A DNA stretch of 32,000 nt from Candidatus Brocadia sp. (GCA_021646415.1 SOEU01000011.1:73385-105384); one strand, 5' to 3'; positions 2,897 through 25,800 are shown, counted from the stretch's first letter. Numbers and translations: made by a program. The notes: a model not told the origin generated them from the letters alone.

Positions 2897-3038
2897 TCTC
2901 TATGCCTTTCTTTTCTTAACAACTACATTGTTGCTATGTTAAACCCAAACCCGTCTTCAAGTGGAGGAGTGTTCCCATGCTCCTTTCGGGCAGAGTCTGG
3001 GTGAGGGGTATTTTCGTGTCAATACTCTACAATCATTG

Positions 3039-3293
3039 CTAGTGCCGGAAACGTACAAAGAGTCTTCCAAAATTTTCACTGTCTTTATCTATACGATGAT
3101 ATAACTTTTTGATGTCAGGACGGTTGAGAAAACGCAAGACGGTCTTCTTTAACTGCCCACTTCCTTTTCCGGGAATGATTTCCACCATCGCAATCCTTTT
3201 CTCGACGGCTTCAAAGATAACACGATTGAGTTCTTTTTCGATTAAATCCCCTTTTTTACAGATGTCGTGTAGATCGAGTTTTAGTTTGGCCAT
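3039..3293 (-). CDS. Smr (small MutS-related) domain protein
   Basis: 84 aa. LDLHD...VEIIPGKGSGQLKKTVLRFL matches the Smr pattern LDLHG...IIHGKGxGxLr..v...L. Confidence 0.7.
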   Translation of the reverse strand: MAKLKLDLHDICKKGDLIEKELNRVIFEAVEKRIAMVEIIPGKGSGQLKKTVLRFLNRPDIKKLYHRIDKDSENFGRLFVRFRH

Positions 3294-3376
3294 GCAATTA
3301 TTTCTTACCGGGCACTAATTTTTTCTTTGTGGCTCAGCGTCTGGTTTATAACAAAAAACTACAGAAGGCAACCGGC

Positions 3377-4156
3377 TTAGTAACTTTCCTTGACAACCCG
3401 ACCATGGACTGGTTGAATCGGCCTTGCATCATACTTGAATATTGAACTAAATTTACCCACCCCTGCTTTTGATACCTCAATCGGCGTCTTTAAAATAAAC
3501 CAATTCACAATTTCATTGCAAGGGGGGGTGGTAAGTGAACCAGTGTAGTTATAATATCCTGTGGCATTCTTTGGAAGGAGTTGGCTTGCACATATCCTTA
3601 TATCAGAGACTATATGCTCTTTACCCACATCTTTTGGGAAGTTACTCCACAGGGTTTTTATGAATGCGTTTTCTTTACCTGCCTCAATGAGTACAGCAAC
3701 AACTGCTATTTCTCCATGCTCCCCTTTATGCACGAGATGCGCTTCCATATCGTAATGTTTTCCATGTATTATATGTTCACTCGGCGTATGAAAGTGAAAC
3801 TGTATAAGTTCGAACCTTTTATGGCCTATTGATATTGAGCTTCCTTTCCCATAATTGACCTGAATAGTATGACCGTTATTTATGATTTTTAACGGAGTTG
3901 GGTAATAATGAAAAATTATGTTTTCCATTTTGGCCTTTTCGGTTATAGAAATACCGATCGGTGATTGCATGTCTCCGGTTTTGCACTTGCAATATTCTCG
4001 TTTTAGTTCACCCCAATGATCGGGACCCTGTTCACCTTCGTAATCCCAATGGTCGGAAGGAATGTGCTCACCAACGCCAGCGAACAAAGATGTTGCTGCA
4101 ATAAAGGAAAGGAACACAAAAGCAGACGTTAAAAAAATATATTGAACAGTCTTCAT
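3377..4156 (-). CDS. Alpha-class carbonic anhydrase, secreted
   Basis: Signal peptide MKTVQYIFLTSAFVFLSFIAATSLFA. Motifs HWDYEGEQGPDHWGEL, QSPI, NNGHTIQV, QFHFHTPSEH and EAHLVH include the three zinc-ligand His positions of alpha-CAs. Confidence 0.92.
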   Translation of the reverse strand: MKTVQYIFLTSAFVFLSFIAATSLFAGVGEHIPSDHWDYEGEQGPDHWGELKREYCKCKTGDMQSPIGISITEKAKMENIIFHYYPTPLKIINNGHTIQVNYGKGSSISIGHKRFELIQFHFHTPSEHIIHGKHYDMEAHLVHKGEHGEIAVVAVLIEAGKENAFIKTLWSNFPKDVGKEHIVSDIRICASQLLPKNATGYYNYTGSLTTPPCNEIVNWFILKTPIEVSKAGVGKFSSIFKYDARPIQPVHGRVVKESY

Positions 4157-4282
4157 CTTGCCTCCTTATAAAATTGATTAAGTTTATGAAAATACATAAT
4201 ACAAGGTAAAAATATTAGTCATATTTACCTGGTTCGAACGAGTCGGAAAAAGACAAAAACCGAAGCACGAAATTTGTGAGTC

Positions 4283-4297
4283 AACCCTGACAGGGTT
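4283..4297. promoter_or_regulatory. Perfect 15-bp palindrome AACCCTGACAGGGTT upstream of the carbonic anhydrase gene (candidate operator)
   Basis: Read directly: AACCCTG-A-CAGGGTT, immediately adjacent to repeat copy A. Confidence 0.3.
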
Positions 4298-4298
4298 A

Positions 4299-4350
4299 GT
4301 TTTATTCATATTTTTGCTAAAAATGTCCAAATATTCTTTATATGATACTT
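4299..4350. repeat. Intergenic repeat copy A (about 50 bp), upstream of the minus-strand carbonic anhydrase gene
   Basis: gttttattcatatttttgctaaaaatgtccaaatattctttatatgatact aligns with 4811-4860 at about 43 of 50 positions with one gap (by eye). Confidence 0.6.
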
Positions 4351-4429
4351 CTTATAGCATTTCAACGAGCCTCCTGTCAATTTGGAAATTATCTGTTTGA
4401 AATTTGAAAACCCATTATGATTGACCAAC

Positions 4430-4750
4430 TTATTCAGAAGCTTGTAATTTGAAGAGCAGAGGGGCAGTACATCGTTCGAGAAATTCTAGATATGCGTATG
4501 CTTCTTCAGCCGTTTGTCCGCACATCTCTTCCGAGGGTTGAAGGCTCAAACAAACTGCCGGCCTTTCCGGTTTGCCAAAGAGGAGGCAGCGGTTATCCGA
4601 ACTGAGTTGCTGGCATTGAATACCGGCCGGTTTACCATTCGGCATACCGGGAATTGGAGATGAAATTGATAGTGCAACACAACAGGCGCCACATCCTATT
4701 CTACATTTCACGTGATATCCCTGCAATTTTCCTAAGGCCTTCCATTCCAC
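4430..4750 (-). CDS. YkgJ-family cysteine-cluster (zinc/iron-chelating) protein
   Basis: CRIGCGACCVALSISSPIPGMPNGKPAGIQCQQL..NRCLLFGKPERPAVC matches the CxxCGxCC...C pattern of the YkgJ/UPF0153 family. Confidence 0.7.
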   Translation of the reverse strand: MEWKALGKLQGYHVKCRIGCGACCVALSISSPIPGMPNGKPAGIQCQQLSSDNRCLLFGKPERPAVCLSLQPSEEMCGQTAEEAYAYLEFLERCTAPLLFKLQASE

Positions 4751-4810
4751 AAGTCAAAAACCCGCGTAAGTGCTAAAAGAGCCAGTGAATGTCTGAAACT
4801 ACCCTTATGA

Positions 4811-4860
4811 ATTTTATTCATGTTTTTGCTAAAATGTCAAAATTATCTTTGGAAGATACT
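4811..4860. repeat. Intergenic repeat copy B, upstream of the minus-strand ykgJ-like gene
   Basis: attttattcatgtttttgctaaaatgtcaaaattatctttggaagatact is the homolog of 4299-4350. Both copies have the same orientation relative to the downstream minus-strand gene. Confidence 0.6.
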
Positions 4861-4869
4861 ACGCCCTTG

Positions 4870-5520
4870 TTATACGGTACGAGGCTGTTTTTTGCCTTCT
4901 TGCGGACGCAGATAGGCAATAGCATCCGGAGAAAGAAATTGAATTTGGTTGCCTGCATAAAGGATAATCTCACAAGCCAATTCAAAGAAACTTGCCTTTT
5001 GAATTGCGTCATCAAAACTTCTTCCCACGGTGACCTGACCGTGGTTCTTCAAAATCACTAGATCGTGTCCCTTCGCGGCAGAAATGACTTCTTTTGCAAG
5101 ATCATTTGATCCGGGATTCAGGTAAGGTACAACCGCAATTGAGCCAATATAGTAAGGAATTTCTGGAATAACAAAAAAATTCTCAGGATTCCTGCTATTG
5201 CAGGCGACCGCTGTGGCAAAGGGAGACTGAAAGTGCAGAACCACATTAACATCAGAACGTTCACGGAATATGCCAAAGTGGAAATCATTCTCTGCAGAAG
5301 GTCTCTTTTCGTTCAGGACAGTGCCATCTGAAATCCGGCAAATTGCAATCTGCTCTCTGCTCATCTCTGCCATCCATGAGCAGGTTGCAGTAATAAGCAT
5401 ATATTCTTCATTTACCCGCCAGGATAAGTTCCCGCTGCTACAACGTGCCAATCCATGGGACGCCACCCGATGGCAGGCAGCAACAAACTCTTTTAAATAC
5501 TTTTCTGAAATATGGCGCAT
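4870..5520 (-). CDS. Class II aldolase/adducin-family protein
   Basis: SSGNLSWRV...MLITATCSWM...RPSAENDFHFGIFRERSDVNVVLHFQSPFATAVA fits the class II aldolase pattern (GNiS.R, liT.sG, PSsE...H, vvHtHsp.atA). Confidence 0.8.
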   Translation of the reverse strand: MRHISEKYLKEFVAACHRVASHGLARCSSGNLSWRVNEEYMLITATCSWMAEMSREQIAICRISDGTVLNEKRPSAENDFHFGIFRERSDVNVVLHFQSPFATAVACNSRNPENFFVIPEIPYYIGSIAVVPYLNPGSNDLAKEVISAAKGHDLVILKNHGQVTVGRSFDDAIQKASFFELACEIILYAGNQIQFLSPDAIAYLRPQEGKKQPRTV

Positions 5521-5678
5521 CGATACTTCCCGATTTTATTTGGTTGTGATTTATACATAATTCTAAATAATTTCCGGGATTTAATGCAAGGAAAACTATT
5601 ACTGAAAAACCGGTGAAAGATCTAAGACAGGTTCCTGGTTTCAGGGCACAACCTTGCGTCATAATAATTACTTTAGAG

Positions 5679-5706
5679 TTGTATTTTGAAATATAAAATT
5701 TATAAT
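5679..5706 (+). promoter_or_regulatory. Candidate sigma70-type promoter for the Ig-repeat protein gene
   Basis: TTGTAT (5679-5684), 16-nt spacer, TATAAT (5701-5706), about 85 nt upstream of the ATG at 5791. AAGGAG RBS at 5777-5782. Confidence 0.35.
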
Positions 5707-5790
5707 ACCGCGTGAGACTAATAATGCAGAAGATTATGATAGAGTCTCTGTATTTTAAAAGACCCTCATGAAAATTAAGGAGAAATATAC

Positions 5791-7269
5791 ATGAAATGGT
5801 TGAATTTTAAGCATCCGTTTTATTTGACAACTTTAATTTTATGCGGCTTTACCATAGTAGCTATTCCCCATGGTGTGATTGCAAAGGAGAAAAAAAACAA
5901 GGATAAAAAAAGCACTGTAACGGCAGAATGCGTGTTAAAGAAAATAACGACCATTCCTGGGCAGGAGTTAGTAGTCGAAAGGGGGAAGGGTGTTAATGTT
6001 ACGGTAGTGGTGAAATGCAAAGGTGATATTCCTGCCGCAGGCGTTACGGTTGAAGCTGCTACATTGAAAGGGAAAAAGGTCATTGAACTTTCTCCTATAA
6101 GTGCTGTAACAGACAAAGATGGCAAAGCAGTTTTCACCATTACAGGCAACAGAAAAACAGAAGAGGAACTTGCAGAGATTAAATTTACGGCAGAGAAGCT
6201 TGCCACAAAATTGGCGGTAAAGGTCAGAAGAACCGAATGTAAACCTGGAAATATCAAAATAGAACCCGCGAAGGAATTGGTACTTGAGCCCGGGAAAAGC
6301 AGTCAGATCACGGTAAAGGTGATATGCGAAAACGGTAGCCCTGCTGTGGATGCCAAGGTAGATGCACTTGTTCAGGTTGGCAGCGATAAGTTAGACATTT
6401 CATCATCGGCAGAATTAACCGACGCAAGCGGGAAGGCGGTCTTTACCGTAACGGGTATTCAGGAGACCAAAAAAGGGTCTGCCTCAATCAGGTTTATGAC
6501 CGGAGACCTTAAAGCGGAAGTGGATGTAAAAGTCAAATCAGTTGCAGGAGAGGAAGGCACAGAAACGACACAGTTAGTGCCAAAGGCAATACAAACTATT
6601 CCAGGGCAGGAGGTGACGGTTGCAAGAGGAAAAGATGTCAATGTCGTTGTAAAGGTGATGGGCAAAGGTAACATTCCTGCTGCCGGCGTTACCGTTGAAG
6701 CAGCTACACTGAAAGGGAAAAAGGCCATAGAACTTTCTCCTGTAAGTGCTGTAACAGACAAAGATGGCAAAGCAGTTTTTACCATTACGGGCAACAGAAA
6801 AACAGAAGAGGAACTTGCAGAGATTAAATTTACGGCAGAGAAGCTTGCCGCAAAATTGGCGGTAAAGGTCAGAAGAACCGAATGTAAGCCAGGAAGAATG
6901 AAGATAGAACCCGATCAGAAGGTAGTACTTGAACAGGGAAAGAGTAAGCAGGTCACGGTAAAGGTGATATGCGAAGACGGTAGCCCTGCTGTGGATGCCA
7001 AAGTGGATGCAATCGTCCAGGTTGGCAGTGGTAAGATAGACCTTTCGCCGTCCGCAGAATTAACCGACGCAAGTGGTAAGGCGGTCTTTACCGTAGCGGG
7101 TATTCAGGAAACCAAAAAAGAGCCAGCTACTATTAGGTTTATGACTGAAGACCTTAAAGCATACCTCAACGTAAAAGTTATACCAGTAACGGCAGAGATA
7201 ACACAACCAGAAGAGGCGACACCAAAAGAAATTGCAACTCCAAAAGAAGAGGCAACGCCTGAAAAGTAA
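5791..7269 (+). CDS. Secreted protein with four tandem bacterial Ig-like (Big-type) domains and a Pro/Glu/Thr-rich tail
   Basis: N-terminal signal/TM segment (FYLTTLILCGFTIVAIPHGVIA). Four homologous units of about 100 aa share the pattern EC..(I/K).P..ELV.E.GK...V.V.C..G.PA....V.A...TD..GKAVFT.TG...I.F....L.....VKV. C-terminal tail is EITQPEEATPKEIATPKEEATPEK. Confidence 0.75.
   Translation: MKWLNFKHPFYLTTLILCGFTIVAIPHGVIAKEKKNKDKKSTVTAECVLKKITTIPGQELVVERGKGVNVTVVVKCKGDIPAAGVTVEAATLKGKKVIELSPISAVTDKDGKAVFTITGNRKTEEELAEIKFTAEKLATKLAVKVRRTECKPGNIKIEPAKELVLEPGKSSQITVKVICENGSPAVDAKVDALVQVGSDKLDISSSAELTDASGKAVFTVTGIQETKKGSASIRFMTGDLKAEVDVKVKSVAGEEGTETTQLVPKAIQTIPGQEVTVARGKDVNVVVKVMGKGNIPAAGVTVEAATLKGKKAIELSPVSAVTDKDGKAVFTITGNRKTEEELAEIKFTAEKLAAKLAVKVRRTECKPGRMKIEPDQKVVLEQGKSKQVTVKVICEDGSPAVDAKVDAIVQVGSGKIDLSPSAELTDASGKAVFTVAGIQETKKEPATIRFMTEDLKAYLNVKVIPVTAEITQPEEATPKEIATPKEEATPEK
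5935..7200 (+). repeat. Two-copy tandem duplication (period 645 bp) inside the Ig-repeat gene
   Basis: attcctgc at 6028 recurs at 6673. In the roughly 217 nt compared by eye (6031-6247 vs 6676-6892) I count 13 mismatches. Each unit encodes two Ig-like domains. Confidence 0.85.
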
Positions 7270-7418: not shown

Positions 7419-8036
7419 ATGACTGCAATATTAAAAGAAGATATTTTGCGGGGGAAAAATAAGGAAACCTCCGGTAAAGAAAAAGTAGATAAAATAATGG
7501 ATACCATAGTTGAGTCAATAGAGGCACCACATCATGCAAAAATGGAGAGTGTAGAAAGTAAGGTAGCATCAGAATCAATAAAACCAACGGAAATGGAAGG
7601 TGCTGGAAAACAATATCTCTTTAGCAGTGAAATATTGATAGAAGGCGAAAACAAGTCCGACCTCGATGAGGTTAGGAGCAGGCTTCTAAAAGAATTGAAA
7701 CCCTCAGATGAAATAGAATCAATTATTGTGGATCGTATCGTTTCAAGTGTCTGGCGATTAAAACGATGCTTGAAAATTGAAAGCCAGATGATGGAGTATG
7801 AGACGTCATGCATTCAGGAATATGAGCAAGGATTTTTTAGAACCAGGAAAAGGACTGGCAAAGAACTGATACAATTAAAGGCATTAAAAATTATCGAAAA
7901 CAAAAACAGAATCGCTGAATTATCTAAATATGAAACAATGTTAGAAATGCAAATATATAAGGCATTGAGAGAATTGTCTAAATATAGACGACGAGAGGCG
8001 AGACAAGAGAAGAGGACGCTGAGAAGGGCTAAATAA
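7419..8036 (+). CDS. Hypothetical protein with an acidic N-terminus and a basic coiled-coil C-terminus
   Basis: 205-aa ORF with a purine-rich stretch (AAGGGAAG) upstream of the ATG. The segment SDEIESIIVDRIVSSVWRLKRCLKIES and the C-terminus KYRRREARQEKRTLRRAK match no family I can name. Confidence 0.5.
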   Translation: MTAILKEDILRGKNKETSGKEKVDKIMDTIVESIEAPHHAKMESVESKVASESIKPTEMEGAGKQYLFSSEILIEGENKSDLDEVRSRLLKELKPSDEIESIIVDRIVSSVWRLKRCLKIESQMMEYETSCIQEYEQGFFRTRKRTGKELIQLKALKIIENKNRIAELSKYETMLEMQIYKALRELSKYRRREARQEKRTLRRAK

Positions 8037-8123: not shown

Positions 8124-8152
8124 TTGACAATAGAAATTACGTCTGCTACTAT
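8124..8152 (+). promoter_or_regulatory. Candidate sigma70-type promoter of the ACP-to-radical-SAM operon
   Basis: TTGACA (8124-8129), 17-nt spacer, TACTAT (8147-8152). A second TTATTGACAA copy lies 14 bp upstream (8107-8116). The 7-bp inverted repeat CAGACGT (8093-8099) / ACGTCTG (8139-8145) brackets both boxes. Confidence 0.4.
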
Positions 8153-8212
8153 GTTGCCCTGAGTTTTAGCAACGATGGTTGTTTTATTGTTTTGAGCAGT
8201 TTATTATGGAGG

Positions 8213-8491
8213 ATGACGATTTTGAACGCTGAAGAAATTGAAAAAGGTGTAACCGCGATAGTCGCTGAGGTTACAGAATTAGATGAAAAAGAAATTTGGG
8301 ATAAAAGAGATGCAAATTTCTTTAAAGACCTCGAGATTGATTCCCTTTTGGCCTTAGAAATTCTTGCGCTTATTGAGAAGAAATTCAAGGTGCAAATCCC
8401 CGAAGAAAAGCTTGTTGATATTACATCCCTAAGTGCCACCATTGATTTAACAAAATCTGTTTTGGCAGAAAGCGGAAAACTTTCATCTTAA
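8213..8491 (+). CDS. Acyl carrier protein (specialised, operon-encoded)
   Basis: DANFFKDLEIDSLLALEILALIEKKFKVQIPEEKL carries the DSL phosphopantetheine-attachment serine in the normal helix-II context. The start is uncertain: the ORF-track start 8192 is TTG, ATG 8213 abuts GGAGG (8208-8212), and TTG 8222 has better 9-nt spacing. Confidence 0.85.
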   Translation: MTILNAEEIEKGVTAIVAEVTELDEKEIWDKRDANFFKDLEIDSLLALEILALIEKKFKVQIPEEKLVDITSLSATIDLTKSVLAESGKLSS

Positions 8492-8570
8492 AGCTCCAAA
8501 TAACAGGGTGAGAATTGTATATTGTGTTAGGTAATATTATTCTGATTAACGAGACGATGGGCTACAGTAA

Positions 8571-9026
8571 ATGATGCTTTTTGAGGAAATCCGATCTCTT
8601 CTTCCTCAAAAATATCCTTTTTTATTTATAGATAAAGCTATTGAGTTTGAAGAAGGAAAAAGAATTGTTTGTGTAAAAAATGTCTCAGGTAATGAACCAG
8701 TCTTTGTCGGACATTTCCCTGACTTTGCCATTATGCCCGGGGTTTTAATCATCGAGGCAATGGCACAGGCTTCTATCGTCCTGTTCAAGAAGAGCCTTCC
8801 CCCAAAAAATGACAGGGATACGGTTTTTTTATTGGCATCAGTAAATAACGCTCGGTTTACAAAACCCGTCTTTCCTGGCGACCAACTCTTCATAGAAATC
8901 ATTGTAGAAAAAATTGTGTCTAAGGGAGCTATTGTTCAAGCTGCAGTAACGGCTGATGAAAAAGCGGTTGCTAAGGCAACGCTGACTTTTGGAATTGCAG
9001 ATAAAAGCGCATTAATATCGAGTTGA
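8571..9026 (+). CDS. fabZ: 3-hydroxyacyl-ACP dehydratase FabZ
   Basis: [17 protein letters not shown]...[26 protein letters not shown] has the hot-dog-fold FabZ signature, with the catalytic His (GHFP) and Glu (IIEAMAQ) present. Confidence 0.9.
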
Positions 9027-9039
9027 TAAAATTATATTT

Positions 9040-10266
9040 ATGAATAAACGTGTGGTTATAACAGGCGTAGGTATGATCACCCCTATCGGATCGGGAAAGG
9101 ACACATTCTGGAGTGCCCTAATTACTGGGGTATCTGGTGTTGATGATGTGACGTGTATTGACACTTCCGGATATAAGGTACATAAAGGATGCGAAGTAAA
9201 AAACTTCAAGTATTCCGATTATATAAAAAATGGCATCCTTAAAAAAATTGGTAAAGGTTCGCAATTTGCGATTGCGGCAACAAAGCTTGCTCTGGATGAT
9301 GCCAAGCTTAACATCCGTGCCGTTGACTTAGAAAGGCTTGGAGTTTCTGTTGGAACTACTGCGGGAGAAATACAAATCCTGGAAAAAGTCAATTATATAC
9401 GACACAAAGAGGGAGAAGATAAAGTAGACCCCGATTTGTTTCTCATGCATCCATGTAATAATATTCCTGCTAACATTGCCATTGAGTTTGGTTTCAAAGG
9501 TCCCAATACTATTATTCCCACAGCGTGCGCAGCGGGTAATTATGCAATTGGGTATGCTTATGATTTGATTAAGTTCGGACGGGTGGCTATGATGGTTGCT
9601 GGCGGTTCAGACCCTTTTTCGAAAGTTGCCTATACAGGATTTGCCAGATTGGGCGCCATCGCTCCAGAGATATGTCAACCATTTGACAAAAACAGAAAAG
9701 GCATGATGGTTGGTGAAGGCGCAGGCATGCTTCTCTTAGAATCACTTGATCATGCGATGGAGAGGAATGCAAATATTTATGCCGAAATCATTGGTTACGG
9801 CCTTAGCTGTGACGCCTATCATATAACTATCCCTCATCCCGATGGGGAAGGCGTTATCTCCGCTATGAAAAAAGCCTTAAAATGCGCAAATCTAAAACCA
9901 GAAGACGTCCAGTATGTCAGTGCCCATGGAACAGGAACTCCTGCTAATGACAAAGCCGAAACGATCTCTATTAAAAAGGTATTTGGGGATAAACCTGAGC
10001 ATCTCGCAATTAGTTCAATAAAATCAATGATTGGTCATACCATGGGTGCTGCCAGTGCAATAGAAGCCATTACCTGTGCATTGGTTGTCCAAAACGATAT
10101 CATTCCCCCGACGATTAATTATGAAACACCGGATCCTGAATGTGATCTGGATTATGTACCTAATGTAGCAAGAAAACAAAAGGTAAATATCGCACTGAAT
10201 AACGCTCATGCATTTGGTGGCAATAATAGCTGTTTAGTCGTTAAAAAATTTACAGGCAGAACGTGA
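9040..10266 (+). CDS. fabF: Beta-ketoacyl-ACP synthase II (FabF-type), catalytic triad intact
   Basis: [15 protein letters not shown]; active-site Cys in [11 protein letters not shown]; His in [14 protein letters not shown]; His in [13 protein letters not shown]; C-terminal [14 protein letters not shown]. Confidence 0.92.
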
Positions 10267-10319
10267 AAAAACAAACAGTTCTCCGGAACTGAATTAGGCG
10301 CCTATAACAGAGGTTTGTA

Positions 10320-11561
10320 ATGGAAAAAACGAGGATAGTTGTTACCGGTGTTTCGGTTATTTCATCCATTGGAAGTAATAAGGAAGTTTTTTGGAATAAT
10401 TTAACCAATGGTGTATCAGGCATTAAACCCATTACCTTGTTTGATGTAAGTAAATTTCATAGTAAACAAGCCGGTGAGATTTCTGATTTTGACGCAAAGG
10501 TCTACCTTGGCCAAAAGGGAATCCGCCATATTGATAGGACATCCCTTCTTGTATCATCTGCGACGGTTCTTGCCATTAAGGATGCCAATTTAGAGAATAA
10601 TACCTACAGTGGTGATGAATTAGGTATTGTCGTTGGTTCTACGTATGGCAGTATTGATAGTATCAGTTCTTTCGATTTCCAGTCTTTGCGTGAAGGTCCT
10701 AATTATGTGAATCCCATGGATTTTCCTAATACCGTGCTGAATGCACCAGCAAGCCGTGCCTCTATTTTTTGTAAGGCAACAGGGCTGAATACAACCATTT
10801 CAAATGGTGTAACAAGCAGCATCGATGCGATTATTTATGCCTCTGATTTCCTTCGGATGGGTCGGGTAAAGGCTGTAGTTGCCGGAGGCGTGCATGGATT
10901 AACTCATGACATCTTTTGGGGAGCACATAATTCTAAAATATTATCGGGAAGTAAGGATGGGACTCAGGAAATTTGTGCACCCTTTGACAAAAGACGCAAT
11001 GGGATGGTCATTGGTGAAGCATCGGCATTAGTCATCCTCGAAACCTTAGAAGATGCGCTCCGGAGAAATGCACATATTTATGCAGAAATCAAGGGTTACG
11101 GAACCGCATTTGACCCTGAAATGGCTGTTAGCAGGGATTATCAGATAGACGGCAACAAAAGGGCTATCATGGGTGCCATTCATGATGCCAGTCTGACGTT
11201 GAATGATATTTCTTACATATCTGCCAATGCTTATTCTGGTGTTTATGGCGATGCAATGGAAACCAGAGTTATTAAAGAAGTCTTCGGCATGAGAGCAAAT
11301 CTTATTCCTGTTACCGCAATAAAATCTATGACAGGTGAATGTTATGATGCCTCGGGAGCATTGCAGACAATAGCCGCAGCAATGTCCATGAACACACACA
11401 CAGTTCCACCGACAATTAACCTTAAGGAACGTGACCCTGAGTGTGATTTAGATTATGTTGCCAATATCGCCAGGGTCTTACCAGTCAAAAATGTCCTAAT
11501 CAACACCTTTTCACGATTGGGAAATAATTCGGCCTTAATTATCTCCAAATACAAGCAGTAA
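10320..11561 (+). CDS. Ketosynthase paralog lacking the Cys-His-His triad (chain-length-factor/KS-beta-like)
   Basis: Full-length thiolase-fold KS similarity to the upstream FabF (TRIVVTGVSVISSIG..., [34 protein letters not shown]). In ungapped local alignment [11 protein letters not shown] aligns with SNGVTSSIDAI (Cys to Val), SAHGTGTP with SANAYSGV (His to Asn) and [11 protein letters not shown] with KSMTGECYDAS (His to Glu). Confidence 0.85.
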   Translation: MEKTRIVVTGVSVISSIGSNKEVFWNNLTNGVSGIKPITLFDVSKFHSKQAGEISDFDAKVYLGQKGIRHIDRTSLLVSSATVLAIKDANLENNTYSGDELGIVVGSTYGSIDSISSFDFQSLREGPNYVNPMDFPNTVLNAPASRASIFCKATGLNTTISNGVTSSIDAIIYASDFLRMGRVKAVVAGGVHGLTHDIFWGAHNSKILSGSKDGTQEICAPFDKRRNGMVIGEASALVILETLEDALRRNAHIYAEIKGYGTAFDPEMAVSRDYQIDGNKRAIMGAIHDASLTLNDISYISANAYSGVYGDAMETRVIKEVFGMRANLIPVTAIKSMTGECYDASGALQTIAAAMSMNTHTVPPTINLKERDPECDLDYVANIARVLPVKNVLINTFSRLGNNSALIISKYKQ

Positions 11562-11564
11562 TTC

Positions 11565-13025
11565 ATGATATCTTCCAACCGGTGCATTCAATCCACTAAA
11601 AAGGATAGTCTTTATCCTTCTTATGATGCAATTGTGATTGGTGCAGGTATTGCTGGTCTGGTTTGCGGTGCATTCCTCGCCAGGATCGGGAAAAAGGTAC
11701 TCATTGTGGAGCAGCATTCCATCCCTGGCGGTTATTGCACTTCATTTAAAAGGAAAGGTTTCAATTTCGATGCGGCAGTTCACCATATTGGGGGTTGTGG
11801 AAAATGGGGTATTGTAGGGCGTTGCCTTAAAATTCTGGAGATAGAGCTGGATTTTTATCCTCTCGATCCAATGGACCATTTGATTTTCCCCAACCTTACC
11901 ATAGAAATTCCAGCCGATTTGGACGAATATATCATACGTTTACAGGGTCGCTACCCATCGGAAAAGGATAGCGTCAAGCATTTCTTTCAGGATTTTTTAA
12001 AGCTCTATCGCGCTACATTCAATAATGAGAAAAGCCAAATTATAGATAAATATAAAAATCAGACGTATATTGAAATGTTGAATGCTTTTTTGAAAAATGA
12101 CGAGCTCAAGATGATACTTTCTGGTCAATGGGGTTATATAGGGCTCCCCCCTACCCAAGCTTCTGCTATAGGCATGTGCCAGATGATGATCAATTATCTC
12201 AAAGACGGCGCCTTTTTTCCTGCGGGTGGTACGCAAGAGTTTGCTAATGCAATTTTTAAGAAATTTATTGATTTTGGTGGGCATATTATGCTATCATCCA
12301 AAGCCGAAAAAATTTTATGTACCGGCAAAACCGCCGTTGGTGTAAAATTGCAGGAAGGGAAAGAGATATCCTCGGACGTTGTTGTTTCAAACATTGATGC
12401 CCGGCAGACCTTTTTCGGATTATTAGAAGGTAAATCAGATACACCATTCCTTCAAAGAATTAGAGAAATGAAGGAAAGTTGTTCCTTTTGCCTTTTATAC
12501 TTGGGAGTAGGTGAAGGCATAGATTTAAGTGAATTAAAAAGAGGATTTTATCATACTGCCACAGATGCAAGATATGTAAATGACGAGTGGATGTATGTGT
12601 CGGTTCCAACGAAGATAAGCCCTGCACTTGCCCCGCCAAACAAGCAGATAATCTCTGCGGTTGTTTACATGGAGAAAGAAAAATATAATGATATTACTGA
12701 TTGGAAATCTTTTAAAGAAAGTATGATATCAGGTACAATAAATCGACTGGAAGAATACGTCCCTGATATAAAAAAACATATCGAAGTAAAAGATGCGGCT
12801 ACCCCGAAAACTCTGGAGCGGTACACGTTAAATACCAATGGAGCCGCTTACGGCTGGGAGGTCAGTGTGGATCAAATATGGGATAATAGACTTCCCCATC
12901 AGACGCCGATTGATAATCTGTATTTGACTGGTCATTGGACAAGGCCTGGTCCTGGAATTTGTGCTGTTGTTTCTTCTGGATGGGGTGTAGCAAATTTAAT
13001 TATGGAGAAGGAGAATTGGAGGTAA
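11565..13025 (+). CDS. Phytoene-desaturase-family (CrtI-like) FAD-dependent oxidoreductase
   Basis: N-terminal dinucleotide-binding fold YDAIVIGAGIAGLVCGAFLARIGKKVLIVEQHSIPGGYCTSF. About 486 aa, with the C-terminal LYLTGHWTRPGPGI motif typical of CrtI/amine-oxidase-fold enzymes. It starts 3 nt after the KS-like stop. Confidence 0.85.
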   Translation: MISSNRCIQSTKKDSLYPSYDAIVIGAGIAGLVCGAFLARIGKKVLIVEQHSIPGGYCTSFKRKGFNFDAAVHHIGGCGKWGIVGRCLKILEIELDFYPLDPMDHLIFPNLTIEIPADLDEYIIRLQGRYPSEKDSVKHFFQDFLKLYRATFNNEKSQIIDKYKNQTYIEMLNAFLKNDELKMILSGQWGYIGLPPTQASAIGMCQMMINYLKDGAFFPAGGTQEFANAIFKKFIDFGGHIMLSSKAEKILCTGKTAVGVKLQEGKEISSDVVVSNIDARQTFFGLLEGKSDTPFLQRIREMKESCSFCLLYLGVGEGIDLSELKRGFYHTATDARYVNDEWMYVSVPTKISPALAPPNKQIISAVVYMEKEKYNDITDWKSFKESMISGTINRLEEYVPDIKKHIEVKDAATPKTLERYTLNTNGAAYGWEVSVDQIWDNRLPHQTPIDNLYLTGHWTRPGPGICAVVSSGWGVANLIMEKENWR

Positions 13026-13029
13026 ATTT

Positions 13030-14490
13030 ATGAAAAGAAAAATGATGTTGATTAACCCACACAAGCCGGGTAGGCATGGCGAAGAGAGTATTACCGTAAT
13101 CGTCCAGATGCCTTTGAATCTTGCTTATGTTGCCGCCCTTACGCCAGGCGATTGGGAATTTGACGTTATTGACGAAAATCTCGAATTGGCAATAGATGAT
13201 AACGGTGAAATTACCTTTAAACCCGTAGATCTTGTGTGTATAACAGCAGTTACCTATCAATCTCCCAGGGCCTACACGATTGCTACTGCCTGTAGGAAAA
13301 AGGGTATGACCGTAATCATGGGTGGAATACATGCGTCTGTAATGCCTGAGGAAGCCATAAAGTACGTCGATGCTGTTTTTGTGGGTGAGGCAGAGGAAGT
13401 ATGGCCACAGGTAATCAAAGATTTTGAAGACGGAAAGCTCAAGAAGATTTATCAGGGAGGATTGCCTCCCCTCAGCCTGATGAAAAAGGTATATCCTAAT
13501 CGGGAGCTCATGAAGAAAAAATATGACTATAAATTTTCTTCCATTGTCACAACGAAGGGATGCCCGAACTATTGCGATTTCTGCAGCGTCCCCACATTCC
13601 AGGGAAGAAAATTCAGGGAGAGACCTTATGAAGATGTTCTCGCAGAGATGGCCGCAACAGATTATAAGGGTTTGATGCTGGCAGAGGATAATTTTTACGG
13701 TCATGGGAAAAAGTCAAACGAGAGGGCACGGGATCTTTTTAAGGGCATGGTGGAGCGCGGCATCCACAAAGATTGGCTAGGATTTACTGCTTTAAATATT
13801 TCTCAGGATCCTGAGACATTAAATTATATGGCAAAGAGTGGCTGCTTTGGTATGCTTATCGGTATCGAATCTACCAATGAGGCCGTTTTACAGAAGATGA
13901 ATAAGCGGGTAAACCTTAAGCTGGGTACAGATAGTTACTTTGATTGTATCCAAAAGATACACGATGCCGGCCTGGTTGTTTGGGGATCAGTAGTGTTTGG
14001 AGCCGATGGAGATGATAAAGACTCCTTTAAAAGAATGACTGAGTTCATATTGGAAAATAATATTGATATTCTTACCTTTGGTATTAACTGCCCATTCCCC
14101 AAGACTCAACTTTATGCCAGACTGGATTCAGAAAAGAGGATCTTCAGGAAAAATTATCCAGAAGATTGGCAATACTATGATACTGCTCATGTGGTTCATC
14201 GTTTCGTAGACATGACGTTAGAAGGCTTTATCGAAGGTATGCAATATGTTTATGATCATGTTTACGCAGGTGATAACCTAAGAACACGTTTCAGAAATTC
14301 TATTAAGACAACGAAAAATCCGAGAAATTCCATGTTTGCATTCAGGGTAGGTTCTGACTGGAAACAGGTCTTTGAACAGGTCTTGCAGAATTTAAAAGAG
14401 TTGTATGACTCAGGTGATTATTATAAAGATTATTACAAATCAAGTGCGGTACCTGTTTCAAAACCCATAATGGAAGCAGTTACTACATAA
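13030..14490 (+). CDS. B12-binding-domain radical SAM enzyme (class B)
   Basis: N-terminal Rossmann-like cobalamin-domain pattern (LNLAYVAALTP...VCITAVTYQSPRAYTIATACRKKGMTVIMGGIHAS...VFVGEAE). Radical SAM cluster motif TKGCPNYCDFCSV (CxxxCxxC). GGAGG RBS 7 nt upstream. It starts 4 nt after the oxidoreductase stop. Confidence 0.9.
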   Translation: MKRKMMLINPHKPGRHGEESITVIVQMPLNLAYVAALTPGDWEFDVIDENLELAIDDNGEITFKPVDLVCITAVTYQSPRAYTIATACRKKGMTVIMGGIHASVMPEEAIKYVDAVFVGEAEEVWPQVIKDFEDGKLKKIYQGGLPPLSLMKKVYPNRELMKKKYDYKFSSIVTTKGCPNYCDFCSVPTFQGRKFRERPYEDVLAEMAATDYKGLMLAEDNFYGHGKKSNERARDLFKGMVERGIHKDWLGFTALNISQDPETLNYMAKSGCFGMLIGIESTNEAVLQKMNKRVNLKLGTDSYFDCIQKIHDAGLVVWGSVVFGADGDDKDSFKRMTEFILENNIDILTFGINCPFPKTQLYARLDSEKRIFRKNYPEDWQYYDTAHVVHRFVDMTLEGFIEGMQYVYDHVYAGDNLRTRFRNSIKTTKNPRNSMFAFRVGSDWKQVFEQVLQNLKELYDSGDYYKDYYKSSAVPVSKPIMEAVTT

Positions 14491-14597: not shown

Positions 14598-15023
14598 GTG
14601 AAAGATATTCTGGACCGAATTAAAAATTTTGTCAAACGAGTAGAACTCTTTTATGTGGCAACTTCTAATCAAAAGGGAGAGGTACATCTTGCTGTAGCGA
14701 AGGATTTGATTTTTTTACCTGATACGGAACACATAGCTTTTAAGGCGTGGTTTTGCAAAAAAACGATTGAAAATATTCAAAAAAACCCGAATATATCCAT
14801 TGCCATTTATGATGCAAAGTCTGATACGGGTTACCAAATTATTGGTAAGGCAATTTCAAAGAGTGTCGTTGCTGTTTTGAATGGTTACGCACCTGAGTTA
14901 GAAATGGTTGAAAAAGAATATCCGCAAGAAGAGTATCAACTAAAGATAAAGATAATAAATATTATGGAACTACATAGAGTAACACATTCTGATAAGTATC
15001 TTTTAAGTAATGGATCTTTATAG
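14598..15023 (+). CDS. Pyridoxamine-5'-phosphate-oxidase-like (split-barrel flavin-binding) small protein
   Basis: GTG start. VELFYVATSNQKGEVHLAVA...IAFKAWFCKKTIENIQKNPNISIAIYD...GYQIIGKA resembles the PNPOx/general-stress-26 fold pattern. The family assignment is tentative. Confidence 0.5.
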   Translation: MKDILDRIKNFVKRVELFYVATSNQKGEVHLAVAKDLIFLPDTEHIAFKAWFCKKTIENIQKNPNISIAIYDAKSDTGYQIIGKAISKSVVAVLNGYAPELEMVEKEYPQEEYQLKIKIINIMELHRVTHSDKYLLSNGSL

Positions 15024-19299: not shown

Positions 19300-19773
19300 C
19301 TACACTACCATCCCAATAATGACTCCTTCAAATACGAGTTTTCCATTTACCACACCTTGAGTATCAAAGACGGCCCTGCGTGAACGCAATTCCTTGTTTT
19401 TTGCAATGAGAATAAGTTTGTCGCCAGGGATAACTTTTCCACGGAATTTTACTTTATCGATACCACCAAAGCCAAGGAAGCGGTCGTCCTGTGTGGTTTT
19501 TTTGTAATAATAGGTACATAACTGTGCGGCCGCTTCAAGCATAATTACCCCAGGCATCAGGGGACGGCCAGGAATGTGTCCCTGCACCCAAAATTCACTA
19601 TTCGAAATGTCTTTATAACCTATTATAATTTTATTTTCAGGATCAAATTTTATAATGCCGCTCAATTGTTCCATCTCATATCGGTGCGGTATGACGGCAC
19701 GAATAGCCTCGATACCCACTGTCGGTTTATTTAAATCCAAATTGTTTAAATCAGTTAAAATGTCCTGTGGCAT
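19300..19773 (-). CDS. Second FabZ/FabA-like 3-hydroxyacyl-ACP dehydratase
   Basis: IPHRYEMEQL...SEFWVQGHIPGRPLMPGVIMLEAAAQ has the catalytic His and Glu positions conserved. The ORF-track start at 19818 is GTG; I prefer the ATG at 19773 (MPQDILTDL...), but the start is uncertain. Confidence 0.85.
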   Translation of the reverse strand: MPQDILTDLNNLDLNKPTVGIEAIRAVIPHRYEMEQLSGIIKFDPENKIIIGYKDISNSEFWVQGHIPGRPLMPGVIMLEAAAQLCTYYYKKTTQDDRFLGFGGIDKVKFRGKVIPGDKLILIAKNKELRSRRAVFDTQGVVNGKLVFEGVIIGMVV

Positions 19774-19911
19774 ATGATACACGAGAAAATTATTTGTAAA
19801 AACCGGCAAATAAAGCACACTATTTTGTTTGATTCAAAATATTAATAATGATTCGTTATCGTGTCAATGAAAATCTCATAGAGCAAGAAAAACATTCAGC
19901 AAAAAATATAA

Positions 19912-22154: not shown

Positions 22155-22880
22155 CTAGTAACTCCAATTCTCGTGGCGCAAAGGACTTTTATTCAACTCC
22201 TCTTTGTAAAATCTCCACTTTAGCAAATACGTATCCATGTAGGCGATAAATCTTTCATTATGATGACGTTCTAACAGATGCACCATTTCATGCACAATGA
22301 TATATTCAATACATTCTTTTGATTTTTTGGCCAGTTCAAGATTTAACCAGATCCTTTTTGCCTCTCTGTTACACGTACCCCATTTCGTCTTCATCTTTTT
22401 TATGGCATACTCAACACCGTCCAGTCTCATCTTTTTCTTCCAACAAGCAATATATTCGGGAACAATTTCCTTCAGTTTCTGGCGATACCATTCTTCCAAA
22501 ACAACCCGTTTTTTTTCTATGCTTGCGCCAGGTCTTACATACAATTCAAGAACGCTGTGCTTTAATATAACTTTTGGAGCAGCGTTATGCTCAAAAACTT
22601 TCAGCAGGTATCGCTTGCCCAGATAGTAATGACTTTCCTGTGTTAAAAATTCCCTTGGGGTTTCTCGTTCCTGACTGAGCAGTTTTTGCTGCTGTTTCTT
22701 TATCCAACTTAATTTTGATAGAGCGAAAACCCTAATAGTTTCAAGGTCCATGCGTAAGGGAGCGGAAATTCTTACCCTCCCTATTGGCGGATAAACACCC
22801 AGATGAATATTCTTAATATCCTTTTGAATTACATCAATAGGTAAATTACTCAATTGGATTTGCTGCATATCAATACTCAT
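22155..22880 (-). CDS. YgjP-like/DUF45 zinc metallopeptidase (M48-like), the usual type I R-M companion
   Basis: C-terminal HExxH in IIVHEMVHLLERHHNERF, preceded by KWGTCN. It overlaps the hsdR stop by 11 nt. Confidence 0.8.
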   Translation of the reverse strand: MSIDMQQIQLSNLPIDVIQKDIKNIHLGVYPPIGRVRISAPLRMDLETIRVFALSKLSWIKKQQQKLLSQERETPREFLTQESHYYLGKRYLLKVFEHNAAPKVILKHSVLELYVRPGASIEKKRVVLEEWYRQKLKEIVPEYIACWKKKMRLDGVEYAIKKMKTKWGTCNREAKRIWLNLELAKKSKECIEYIIVHEMVHLLERHHNERFIAYMDTYLLKWRFYKEELNKSPLRHENWSY

Positions 22881-25800
22881 TCTGCTGTTTTATGATCGGA
22901 AAAATACGCTCAACTTCATTGGCATCCTTTAAAATATCATAAAGCGCTTTTTTAATTTCTCTTTCCTTAGCATCATTACCACGCCAGTCAGCCTTCTTTA
23001 CATATCTGACGGCTTCATCCATTACAACGGCCAATTCCTCATCGTGATTGAGGTTGTTGTATAATGCCCGTCTGGCGTTACTGTTTTTTATACTTGCCGG
23101 CAAATTATCTCTTGCGGGATTATTTACCTTCTTTGCCAATTCAGCGATCTTCTTTAAATATGCTTCATAATTGATGGCATTTGTCTTTCTCTCTTTAACA
23201 ATTTCATGTAAAAGCTTTGACATTTCTTCAAAGTAAGCAGGGTCTATCAAATGCTCCTGTATGATTTTCTTCCGCACGTTGTTTTCAATAGTTTCCGCCA
23301 CTGCTTCTTTATTGCGTTTAATCCCTTCGGGCAAACTGTTGATGGCATCAGCAATGCCGGAATTAACGAGTAAATCCAGCAACGACATATTCGCAAAAGG
23401 AGAAATTGTCCTGGGTTCCTCCGCCTGTATGTAAGTGTCAATTAAATGCCGCATATCAGCTTCGTAGGTCTTCATATCGAGCGTTTCGCCGCTGGCATTC
23501 CTGATCTCTTCCCTGAGTTTCAAATAATAATCCACTTTCTTTTTGATATCTGCAATCTCTGCCTGGGTATAGCCTGCTTCTTCCATTTCCGCCGCGATAT
23601 TGGCATAAGCCCTTATGAGTGCCACCGTTTGTTTATAAAGAGACGTTCTCTTTACCTCATTGGACTTCAGGTCTTCTTCGTTTTCCGGATCACCACAGAA
23701 GTAGCGGATGTACGCCAGTGAGTCTTTTGGCGGCGCTACCGGTTCGCATAATAAGGCCATTTCTTCCAAGGCATTATCCAGCCGTTCCCTGCCTTTCTCC
23801 AGGCGGTCTTTTAATAACACATCCACGTCCCCTTTCTCAAACGTATCATAATCCAGTTCCGACGTGTACACAGCAACGGCATTTTCAACCTTTCTGAACA
23901 GGTCTTTATAATCAACAATGTAACCAAACTCCTTGTCATCGCTGTCCAGCCGGTTGACCCTGCAAATAGCCTGGAATAAGCCATGATCCTGCATGCTTTT
24001 GTCGATATAGAGATAGGTGCAGGGTGGCGCATCAAAACCGGTAAGGAGTTTATCAACCACGACAAGCAGTTTCATATTTGACGGCTCTTTTATAAACTTT
24101 TCCTTCGCCTCATCTTCGTATTTCTCGGTGGGCTTGTTTCCCAGCAACGATTTATAGATGTTATAGATATATTCCTTTTCCGTCTCTGTATTTGCGCCGG
24201 TATCTTCCGTTGTTATATCCCTTGTTGATGGATTGTATGAGGTAACAATGGCGCATTTGCCTTTCAACTCGGTAGTTTGAAACAGTTCAAAATACCTGCA
24301 TGCTTCATAAATACTTGATGCCACCAGAATGGCATTTCCCCTGTCCGAGTTCAAACGCGGTTTTACATTAAAATCAAACACGATGTCGCTTACGATCTTT
24401 TCCAGTCTGGAACGGGAACTCAGCACCTTCTGCATCGTACCCCATTTCTTCTTGAGCTCAGATTTTTGAAAGTCGTTCAAACCACGGGTCTTGGCTTCAA
24501 ACCATTCATCTATCTTTTGAGATGATGATATTTTCTGGTCGATATCACGGGCTTCGTACACCAAATCAAGCACCACTTCATCCGCAACCGCCTCGTTGAA
24601 CTTATAGGTATGAATGTATTTACCAAATACCTCAAGACTGGTTTGCTTATCTTGTTTTAAGAGTGGGGTTCCGGTAAAGCCAATAAAGATGGCATTTTTT
24701 AAAATTGCCTTCATCGTTTTGTGCAGCTTGCCCGATTGGGTACGGTGACACTCATCTACAAAGATAAATAATTCACCAACGGTATGGATGGGACTCCTTT
24801 TTAATTCTTCAATGAATGCATCAAAATTATCGACTCCCTTCCTGCCAAATTTATGCACCAGCGAACACAGCATGCGGGGCAATGCCTTGCCCAGTTGGTC
24901 CATCAGGTCTTTACCATTGCGGGTACGCACCATGCTTTCCCCAACATCGGTAAATATGCGTTCTATCTGTTTATCCAACTCGTCACGGTCGGTAATAATT
25001 ACCACGCGTGCATGGGGGTTGTTTTCAAGAATCCATTTGGCAAGCCACACCATTACCAGGCTTTTACCGCTGCCCTGCGTATGCCAGATAATTCCACCCT
25101 CTCGCCTTTTCGCATGCTCCTGTGCGGCCTTGACGCCAAAGTATTGATGCGGACGGCACAATTTTTTCATGCCGCCGTCAAACAGGGTAAAGTCGTAGAT
25201 GATTTCAAGAAACCTTCTTTTATCGCACAGTTTTACAAGGTATTTATCGAAGAGATTTTCTCCCTCGCCTTCTTCCTTCCACGTCAGAAAATATTTTTCA
25301 GGTGTCCCAATAGTACCATAGCGGAGCCCCTGGGTATCATTCCCGGCAAACACCCATTGAATGGTGGTAAAGAAGGACTGGATGAATTCTTTCTGCTGGT
25401 TGACAATATTCTGCCGGATACCGTCGCCTATGGAAATCGTGCTTCGTTTCAGTTCCAGCACCCCAAGTGCTACGCCGTTTACGTAGAGCACAATATCAGG
25501 GCGTTTTTCGTGATTGCCCCGGATAGTAACCTCTTCGGCAATGGCAAATTCGTTTTCAAGCGGGTGCTTCCAGTCAATAAGTTCAACGGTCTCATAGTTT
25601 TCACCGGCTTCTGCCTTGACTTTTACGCCGTAACGCAGCAGTTGATATACCTTTTTATTGGCGCTGTATAGACCATCGTTCAGGTTATTAGCCGCCTTGC
25701 CGAGTTCATATAAGGCTTTGTTGATAAGGGTATTATTGTAGCGTTTTCTCTCACGTAAATATTTACGAAGGATTGCTTCTTCAATATTGCTGTTGTTCTG

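Follow-up and report, generated by a model that had tools for sequence, protein, structure and literature searches.

Anammox Cluster I in a Candidatus Brocadia genome: a CrtI-fold flavoenzyme, its radical SAM neighbour and a tentative case for ring formation during chain growth

Ladderanes carry five fused cyclobutane rings on a fatty acid, and their assembly is a well-known unsolved problem of lipid biochemistry for which a pair of neighbouring genes, encoding a flavin-dependent oxidoreductase and a B12-binding radical S-adenosylmethionine (SAM) enzyme, is the field's main suspect. Here we analyse this pair in a 32,000-nucleotide (nt) stretch of Candidatus Brocadia sp. (GCA_021646415.1 SOEU01000011.1:73385-105384; hereafter the window, on which all positions are counted). 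In the literature the two genes close the anammox 'Cluster I' (kuste3603-3608), which encodes an acyl carrier protein (ACP; amxACP), amxFabZ, amxFabF2, amxFabFmut, a phytoene-dehydrogenase-like enzyme and a B12 radical SAM enzyme (PMC2649909; PMC4790861; PMC10139942; bioRxiv 10.64898/2026.05.19.726425). Ladderanes are described as unique to anammox bacteria (PMC13459092; bioRxiv 10.64898/2026.05.19.726425), and Cluster I is reported to be highly expressed and the consensus candidate for their synthesis (bioRxiv 10.64898/2026.05.19.726425) and to be 'encountered exclusively' in ladderane producers (PMC10139942). The hypothesis that a polyene is formed and then cyclized ('type a') is likewise in print (PMC2649909; PMC4790861; PMC13459092); gene pair and hypothesis are thus already known, and have been in the literature since 2009.

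The window carries six plus-strand open reading frames (ORFs; 8192-14490), which Pfam and NCBIfam identify as genes for an ACP, a FabZ-like dehydratase, a ketosynthase (KS), an inactive KS, the oxidoreductase and the radical SAM enzyme (Table 1). Gene order and content agree with the published Cluster I, with all six genes on one strand, and by sequence comparison the last two genes are the orthologues of kuste3607 and kuste3608. The cluster of Kuenenia stuttgartiensis (Rattray 2009, Javidpour 2016, Dietl 2023, Granatino 2026) has the same six genes, the same order and the same substitutions in the inactive KS; the window differs in its host, the nearest named relatives being Brocadia, and we saw no functional difference. 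For the radical SAM protein, identity reaches 96% to a 'Brocadia sp. AMX2' protein and 87% to K. stuttgartiensis P0009; the oxidoreductase is 90% identical to its counterpart in a Brocadia sinica metagenome-assembled genome (MAG), 77% to that of Jettenia, 70-73% to Kuenenia-type proteins and 61% to that of Scalindua.

We fetched 73 metagenome loci with the oxidoreductase as seed, added genome and contig loci with the radical SAM enzyme as seed, and mapped the six window proteins onto all fetched loci (numbered with the prefix L). Adjacency was counted in the 62 loci that contain the oxidoreductase C terminus and at least 400 bp downstream of it: in 61 of these, a radical SAM homologue begins within 400 bp of the end of the oxidoreductase gene, mostly at gaps of -4 to +13 nt. 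Given that the neighbour is kept in 61 of 62 loci, the pairing is not a matter of chance, and the frequent separation that the initial annotation had named as evidence against a joint role was not observed. The exception (L134, 4324-8610) has a 151-amino-acid (aa) YjbQ/UPF0047-like ORF between the inactive KS and the oxidoreductase. The full six-gene order is maintained from 35 to 70% GC, and the tailoring of an ACP-bound chain that had been proposed for the pair would fit this conserved order (that is, ACP, FabZ, KS, inactive KS, oxidoreductase, radical SAM).

Conservation is uneven within the cluster. In 61 of 61 loci, the radical SAM enzyme exceeds the oxidoreductase in conservation, by a mean of 17 identity points, and together with the ACP it is the best conserved cluster protein at every distance. 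Identities to the window in Brocadia-like loci are 95% for the ACP, 85% for FabZ, about 91% for the KS, 87% for the inactive KS, 78% for the oxidoreductase and 93% for the radical SAM enzyme; the corresponding values in Scalindua-like loci are 80, 64, 73, 65, 59 and 78%. In a high-GC clade they are 48% for FabZ, 53-57% for the KS, 36% for the inactive KS, 43.5% for the oxidoreductase (range, 39-47%) and 58.5% for the radical SAM enzyme (range, 57-61%), and the ACP, at 75-98% in low-GC loci (35-54% GC), stands at 51-61%. The same difference in conservation led us to reject a chimeric window, which might have been suspected from an oxidoreductase nearest to that of B. sinica (90%; Kuenenia, 72%) beside a radical SAM enzyme that is 87% identical to that of Kuenenia.

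The radical SAM family (defined here as homologues with at least 52% identity) occurs in four contexts. Its members lie downstream of the oxidoreductase in Cluster I; in a radical SAM-KS-KS-like arrangement without the oxidoreductase in Brocadia and Subterrananammoxibius (L003 and L004), which is of the kuste2803-2805 type (PMC4790861); in a KS-KS-like-radical SAM arrangement on a contig of 72% GC (L160), the protein of which is labelled Planctomycetota at NCBI; and alone in Bathyanammoxibius (L159). Of these four contexts, three have a KS/KS-like pair, whereas the oxidoreductase is confined to one. In three loci (L084, L085 and L137), Cluster I is directly followed, in the same orientation, by a second radical SAM gene, a KS gene and a KS-like gene; this second module runs as far as the KS in L138, whereas L136 ends inside the second radical SAM gene; a short-chain dehydrogenase/reductase (SDR) gene comes after the module in L084 and L085. 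In a rough neighbour-joining tree, the anammox paralogues of type 2 branch at the base and the high-GC clade groups as sister to the anammox Cluster I clade, and a profile search of genome contigs with the radical SAM alignment gave at least four close loci among the 80 matches listed. The adjacency in 61 of 62 loci, the lead of the radical SAM enzyme in conservation and these four contexts are among the new comparative points of this study. Distant radical SAM homologues (at most 39% identity) lie in unrelated contexts, for example adjoining polyamine genes and an MMPL transporter gene. In one Thermodesulfobacteriota MAG (L023:7828-13742), an amine-oxidase-like gene (33%) and a B12 radical SAM gene (36%) occur together; this flavoenzyme-radical SAM pairing is found with an MMPL transporter gene, beside polyamine biosynthesis genes and outside any ACP context.

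The complete, colinear and tightly packed six-gene cluster also lies on soil metagenome contigs of 54-70% GC and in MAGs (L081-L085, L136-L143, L145, L149, L152 and L156), the latter labelled 'Acidobacteria bacterium 13_1_40CM_2_60_7' (L081) and 'Planctomycetota bacterium' (L084) at NCBI. The high-GC MAGs include GCA_036790625.1 and GCA_008501825.1, and soil contigs of this group come from IMG; all anammox-named loci of the sampled set have 39-52% GC. The second KS is still inactive in the three high-GC representatives that were aligned (L081, L084 and L151), and the ACP homologue of L081 carries PF00550. Genes for pectate-lyase/GH28 and apiosidase-like proteins, an SDR and FabH flank the L081 cluster, as does an aminotransferase gene, for which the sole named matches are from Terriglobia (74%) and Acidobacteria; a Terriglobia contig that carries the homologue has no copy of the cluster. 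A 75% homologue of the same aminotransferase adjoins PSCyt/PSD1/DUF1501 genes, which are commonest in Planctomycetota. We regard a possible occurrence outside anammox bacteria, contrary to the published 'exclusively' (PMC10139942), as a lead and not as a result. The antiSMASH 'ladderane' calls reported in many phyla were not counted, as these are short KS-only fragments or unspecified clusters.

The genes upstream of the pair resemble type II polyketide-synthase-like systems for polyenes and cispentacin. FabZ exceeds the cut-off of NF000582 (149 versus 113 bits). Below threshold, FabZ also matches AmcE (95 bits; cut-off, 140) and the KS matches AmcF (238 bits; cut-off, 325), both of which are enzymes of cispentacin formation. 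AmcE/AmcF is a KS/chain-length factor (CLF)-like system in which a FabZ-like protein performs the ring closure. Both Iga11/Iga12 and AmcF/AmcE share with the window cluster a discrete ACP, a KS with an inactive KS partner and a FabZ-like hotdog enzyme, and we know of no CrtI-like or radical SAM partner in either system. The active KS retains the Cys/His/His triad, and aligned to it, the adjoining KS has Val for the catalytic Cys and Asn and Glu for the two His residues, such that its description as 'dead' holds at all three positions; the substitutions published for this protein are Cys to Val or Thr and His to Glu, Cys or Asn (bioRxiv 10.64898/2026.05.19.726425). The orthologous proteins form a heterodimer that decarboxylates malonyl-ACP, an analogy to KS/CLF that has been demonstrated structurally, and in crosslinking assays this heterodimer favoured C6-C8 over C16 substrates (bioRxiv 10.64898/2026.05.19.726425). 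Chains up to C6-C8 are also preferred by amxFabZ (bioRxiv 10.64898/2026.05.19.726425; PMC10139942).

The oxidoreductase matches PF13450 (NAD_binding_8; 52.9 bits) and, over its full length, PF01593 (Amino_oxidase; 47.6 bits), both above the cut-offs, and its GAGIAG motif for flavin adenine dinucleotide (FAD) is invariant across 33 homologues. In a Foldseek comparison, its structural model (predicted local distance difference test (pLDDT) score, 79) has a CrtI-type fold (4rep: template modelling (TM) score 0.80, E value 4.7e-31; CrtI 4dgk: E value 1.6e-23). At the level of fold, then, domain matches and model bear out the label 'CrtI-like' of the initial annotation, and we describe the protein as a CrtI-fold flavoenzyme. 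The FAD fold, the N-terminal GxGxxG and the full-length amine-oxidase domain are common to this protein, CrtI of Pantoea ananatis (4dgk) and the gamma-carotenoid desaturase (4rep), at an identity of 17-21%; however, the window enzyme has ACP and KS genes as neighbours rather than crtE or crtB, and in the alignment to 4dgk, FDAAVHHIGGCG occupies the place of FDAGPTVIT of CrtI. This signature (FD[AS]AVHH[IV]G[GA]C[GS]) recurs throughout the cluster-linked loci, down to 39% overall identity, with L151 as the single exception (Gly in place of Cys); the L023 homologue, at 33% identity and in another context, has lost it. The label 'desaturase' goes further than the sequence does: the protein scores equally well with the phytoene desaturase model TIGR02734 (166.5 bits; cut-off, 238.1) and the carotenoid isomerase model TIGR02730 (172 bits; cut-off, 587), in both cases below cut-off, the CrtD, CrtO and CrtID models are missed by far, and neither the oxidoreductase nor the radical SAM enzyme reaches the curated NCBIfam cut-off of a named family. 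As the CrtI family also includes isomerases, saturases, ketolases and the reductive dehydroxylase HpnE, the window enzyme may work in either redox direction. The Kuenenia orthologue put in place of crtI gave no lycopene (PMC4790861), which also speaks against the label; a soluble MBP construct of the flavoenzyme is available from the same study.

The radical SAM enzyme exceeds the cut-offs of PF02310 (40.1 versus 32.1 bits) and PF04055 (52.7 versus 29.5 bits), matches DUF4070 weakly and carries GCPNYCDFCSVP, such that the N-terminal cobalamin-type domain and the CPNYCDFC motif noticed in the initial annotation are both present (Table 1). Across 55 homologues CxxxCxxC is invariant and C178, C182 and C185 are the sole invariant cysteines, so no auxiliary cluster is evident; a T-Y-Q signature at residues 75-77 is found in all family members and is lost in distant homologues. 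The best NCBIfam match is TIGR04072 (rSAM_ladder_B12, 'lipid biosynthesis B12-binding/radical SAM protein'), which has the same domain architecture but represents a different family (90.4 bits; cut-off, 360) and which we take to be built around the other anammox fatty-acid cluster; HpnJ, HpnR, PhpK, MCR glutamine methylase, BchE and AprD4 rank next, all far under their cut-offs, and the window enzyme has no curated NCBIfam model of its own. In a scan of 1.84 billion cluster representatives, one 50%-identity cluster (697 bits) contains all close relatives, followed by a single protein at 46% and then by thousands at 42% or less. Owing to this abrupt fall in identity, the enzyme is placed by sequence in a small, sharply bounded clade within a large B12-radical SAM group.

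Structural comparison places the model of this enzyme (pLDDT, 91.6) nearest to AprD4 (6fd2), followed by MgmA/QCMT (9ccb), TsrM (6wte), TokK (7kdy), OxsB (5ul3) and CysS (9n1b); with these five class B enzymes it shares the Rossmann B12 domain and the radical SAM barrel. The class B matches have a fold probability of 1.0, TM scores of 0.58-0.64 and identities of 13-18%, and they include enzymes that act on pantetheine-linked substrates (CysS and TokK). OxsB, which carries domains additional to those of the window enzyme, forms a four-membered ring through ring contraction, and AprD4 is a diol dehydratase, listed in a 2026 review as unrelated and as not dependent on B12 (PMC12931638). Given that, according to the same 2026 review, structure cannot separate the non-methylating members of the group from methylases (PMC12931638), and given the listing of AprD4, class B chemistry and cobalamin use can only be inferred; of the earlier designation 'class-B radical SAM', the B12-binding domain stands and the dependence on cobalamin is deduced from that domain alone. 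The lower-axial Trp76 of TokK aligns with an aromatic Tyr conserved throughout the family, and hydrophobic lower faces are typical among radical methylases (PMC12931638); we dropped this residue as a discriminator of methylases and non-methylases, as the alignment of the TokK B12 domain is very weak (6.9 bits).

On this basis we tentatively suggest, with slightly less than even confidence, that the pair carries out ring chemistry during chain growth, on short ACP-bound intermediates, rather than on a finished long polyene. We favour modification during chain growth because the radical SAM paralogues tend to have a condensing-enzyme pair of their own and only one has a flavoenzyme; a KS pair beside each paralogue would be expected if the modified chain needs further elongation. 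In this scheme, short enoyl or dienoyl intermediates would arise from FabZ and the KS/inactive-KS heterodimer, and both enzymes of the pair would act on these while they are tethered to the ACP of the cluster. The flavoenzyme may determine how many C=C bonds there are, or their geometry (by dehydrogenation, isomerization or saturation). The difficult step would fall to the radical SAM enzyme, the 5'-deoxyadenosyl radical of which may take a hydrogen such that a C-C bond is formed or rearranged on the short unsaturated acyl-ACP, after which the KS heterodimer would elongate the product of each modification. This stepwise scheme is the published 'type c' model and would resemble Jaw5 working with an iterative polyketide synthase (PKS). 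Our comparison with Jaw5 concerns a possible mode of working, not family membership. Jaw5 is HemN-like, has no B12 domain, makes cyclopropanes from a SAM-derived methylene and has no known flavoenzyme partner. As proposed for jawsamycin, this radical SAM cyclopropanase modifies an alpha,beta-unsaturated thioester in each elongation cycle, yielding contiguous small rings, and a review of 2026 draws on it as an analogy when discussing how ladderanes might form step by step (PMC13459092). In anammox bacteria, the product would most likely be the ladderane part of the lipids.

Several observations weigh against this proposal. No experiment ties any Cluster I protein to ladderanes (PMC10139942; bioRxiv 10.64898/2026.05.19.726425), as is acknowledged in all of the papers that print the mechanistic hypothesis, two reviews of 2026 among them (PMC13459092; PMC12931638), and expression of kuste3603-3608 in Escherichia coli left the fatty acids unchanged, in a study in which most of the proteins were insoluble and which is silent on cobalamin (PMC4790861). 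The authors of the FabZ and KS studies take the preference for short chains as support for a separate synthesis of the linear part ('type b'; PMC10139942; bioRxiv 10.64898/2026.05.19.726425). The closest fold match of the radical SAM enzyme is the B12-independent AprD4, and sequence cannot separate methylating from non-methylating B12-radical SAM enzymes (PMC12931638). A relative stands alone in Bathyanammoxibius, L134 has no radical SAM gene in the 4.4 kb downstream of its oxidoreductase (where a ROK-family kinase is encoded), and the hosts of the soil clusters are not known makers of ladderanes.

The sequence of polyene formation and radical cyclization put forward in the initial annotation is the published type a hypothesis and not a sequence result, and the caveat given with it, that no sequence feature proves substrate or reaction, was fair. 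In this cascade, a long saturated acyl-ACP would be desaturated in CrtI fashion to a conjugated polyene, and the radical SAM enzyme would then trigger its cyclization into fused cyclobutanes. It accords with the CrtI fold and FAD motif of the oxidoreductase, with the strict order and coupling of the two genes and with its standing in the three papers that state it; however, the oxidoreductase scores equally as an isomerase and below the phytoene desaturase cut-off, its orthologue lacks CrtI activity, and heterologous expression yielded neither polyunsaturated nor any other new fatty acids (PMC4790861). Isotope labelling and the lack of polyunsaturated intermediates also argue against a polyene route (PMC10139942). 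Radical SAM relatives are moreover found beside the KS/KS-like pair in more settings than beside the oxidoreductase, and they occur with KS pairs where the oxidoreductase is missing, which points to action at the elongation stage. A desaturase would not even be needed, as type II polyene PKSs are established to make polyenes with a KS/CLF and a dehydratase, the kind of system that the sub-threshold AmcF/AmcE matches recall. We consider the cascade unlikely.

A cobalamin-dependent alkylation, in which the radical SAM enzyme transfers methyl or alkyl groups iteratively to the ACP-bound chain (compare TokK and CysS), SAM-derived C1 units become ring atoms (for example, via cyclopropanes) and the flavoenzyme supplies unsaturation, seems to us decidedly unlikely. 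Most characterized enzymes of this architecture are methyltransferases, as are HpnR, PhpK and MCR glutamine methylase among the top family matches (TIGR04072 and HpnJ have no assigned reaction), and the fold matches TokK and CysS use pantetheine-linked substrates. The family-wide Tyr at the Trp76 position of TokK would agree with the hydrophobic lower face of a radical methylase but depends on the 6.9-bit alignment, and the non-methylating BchE, OxsB and HpnJ are indistinguishable by sequence (PMC12931638). Alkylation would account for the odd acetate-labelling pattern, and a route by cyclopropane rearrangement was computed to be feasible, as cited in the same paper, yet cyclopropyl or methyl-branched intermediates were not detected in anammox bacteria (PMC10139942). 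Convergent assembly (type b), which we judge very unlikely, would confine the output of the KS pair, FabZ and ACP to a short linear C6-C8 piece; the flavoenzyme would prepare one partner, and the radical SAM enzyme would couple the piece to a ladderane unit of other origin. Because amxFabZ and the KS heterodimer prefer short chains, the authors of those studies favour it (PMC10139942; bioRxiv 10.64898/2026.05.19.726425), and labelling of the linear part is consistent with ordinary fatty acid synthesis. But it requires a second pathway for the ladder itself, and the high-GC operon with two radical SAM genes, two KS pairs and one gene each for dehydratase, ACP, oxidoreductase and SDR looks self-contained. 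Moreover, if the chain grows in the direction used by a fatty acid synthase, the ladder, being at the methyl end, would have to come first, at a stage when the chain is short, such that a preference for short chains would fit type c as well as type b. Finally, the cluster, including the pair, may make a different ACP-derived lipid or polyketide. The missing experimental link to ladderanes and the soil contigs and Acidobacteria- or Planctomycetota-labelled MAGs, with glycoside hydrolase genes beside the cluster, would suit such a product; however, the cluster is conserved in each anammox lineage sampled, it is the highly expressed consensus candidate, and anammox bacteria, the sole described source of ladderanes, offer no stronger candidates. 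The divergent high-GC proteins could also make a related but different product, and we regard a non-ladderane role of the cluster as very improbable.

The junctions around the pair are as the initial annotation described them. The stop codon of the inactive KS (TAA, 11559-11561) is followed by TTC and the ATG of the oxidoreductase at 11565, at a junction where no Shine-Dalgarno-like sequence precedes the ATG, and the stop codon of the oxidoreductase (TAA, 13023-13025) is followed by ATTT and the ATG of the radical SAM gene at 13030, which has its own GGAGG 7 nt ahead. These gaps of 3 and 4 nt are the tightest in the operon (the remaining gaps are 79, 13, 53 and 107 nt), and translational coupling links the oxidoreductase and radical SAM genes with one another as well as with the inactive KS. 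The true start of the ACP is probably an ATG downstream of the annotated start at 8192. A promoter-like site upstream of the ACP gene is a possible operon promoter, for which the evidence is weak: the region holds 29 such sites against 24.6 +/- 5.7 expected by chance, and a scan for promoters and terminators gave counts no higher than chance. An Rfam scan of the window returned zero matches, and hence neither a cobalamin nor a SAM riboswitch.

Table 1. Predicted features of the cluster and its surroundings in the window
Feature	Position	Strand	Evidence
Promoter-like site TTGACA-17-TACTAT with TG, upstream of the ACP gene	8124..8152	+	
ACP, amxACP orthologue, DSL phosphopantetheine site	8192..8491	+	ORF and LEIDSL motif
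FabZ-like 3-hydroxyacyl-ACP dehydratase, amxFabZ orthologue	8571..9026	+	PF07977, 90.6 bits
Active FabF-like ketosynthase, amxFabF2 orthologue	9040..10266	+	Pfam KS N- and C-terminal domains
Inactive ketosynthase, chain-length-factor-like, amxFabFmut orthologue	10320..11561	+	KS domains; triad replaced
CrtI-fold FAD-dependent oxidoreductase, 'PDH', kuste3607 orthologue, 486 aa	11565..13025	+	
FAD-binding GxGxxG (GAGIAG), oxidoreductase residues 26-31	11640..11657	+	Translation
Oxidoreductase clade signature FDAAVHHIGGCG	11766..11801	+	Translation; alignment to CrtI 4dgk
Shine-Dalgarno GGAGG of the radical SAM gene	13018..13022	+	Within the last oxidoreductase codons
Radical SAM enzyme with B12-binding domain, kuste3608 orthologue, 486 aa	13030..14490	+	
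Rossmann-type B12-binding-like domain, residues 28-127	13111..13410	+	PF02310
CxxxCxxC motif CPNYCDFC for the radical SAM [4Fe-4S] cluster	13561..13584	+	
PNPOx-like small flavin-barrel protein	14598..15023	+	PF01243, 33.5 bits

Around the cluster, the PNPOx-like gene (107 nt past the radical SAM gene) is kept in some Brocadia-like loci and is absent from Scalindua-like and high-GC loci, and its product is probably outside the cluster core. It is followed by genes for a dihydrolipoyl dehydrogenase and a glycogen-phosphorylase-like protein, both of which keep this synteny in Brocadia- and Kuenenia-like loci. At 19300-19818 on the minus strand, 4.8 kb downstream of the cluster, lies a gene for a second FabA/FabZ-like hotdog dehydratase (weak ApeI-like match), with a homologue at the equivalent place in L098. 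Just upstream of the operon lie a gene for a secreted Big_1 (bacterial Ig-like) protein made of two near-identical halves of about 220 aa (5791-7269, plus strand) and, after it, a gene for a 205-aa protein without a family match (7419-8036). The window also holds a Cas1 gene (868-1752, plus strand), with no repeat array within the scanned positions 1-1000 or 1700-5800, and a complete type I restriction-modification system (22870-30027, minus strand; hsdR, a gene for a 188-aa protein of unknown function, hsdS and hsdM) adjoined by a YgjP-like metallopeptidase gene.

In summary, rediscovery of the field's suspect changes nothing by itself; the comparative results argue against the picture of a polyene that is made and then zipped, and for ring formation during chain growth, and they single out the radical SAM enzyme as the catalyst under the strongest constraint in the cluster. 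Our overall reading, which we hold at a little under an even chance, is that the six-gene cluster is not confined to anammox bacteria, such that either ladderane-like strained lipids would occur elsewhere or the Cluster I product would differ from the one assumed, and that the KS/inactive-KS pair, as the constant partner of this radical SAM family in preference to the flavoenzyme, argues for rings that form while the chain grows. As the homologous clusters of soil bacteria would lie outside the slow-growing and genetically intractable anammox bacteria, the pathway might become testable if one of their hosts proves to be culturable.

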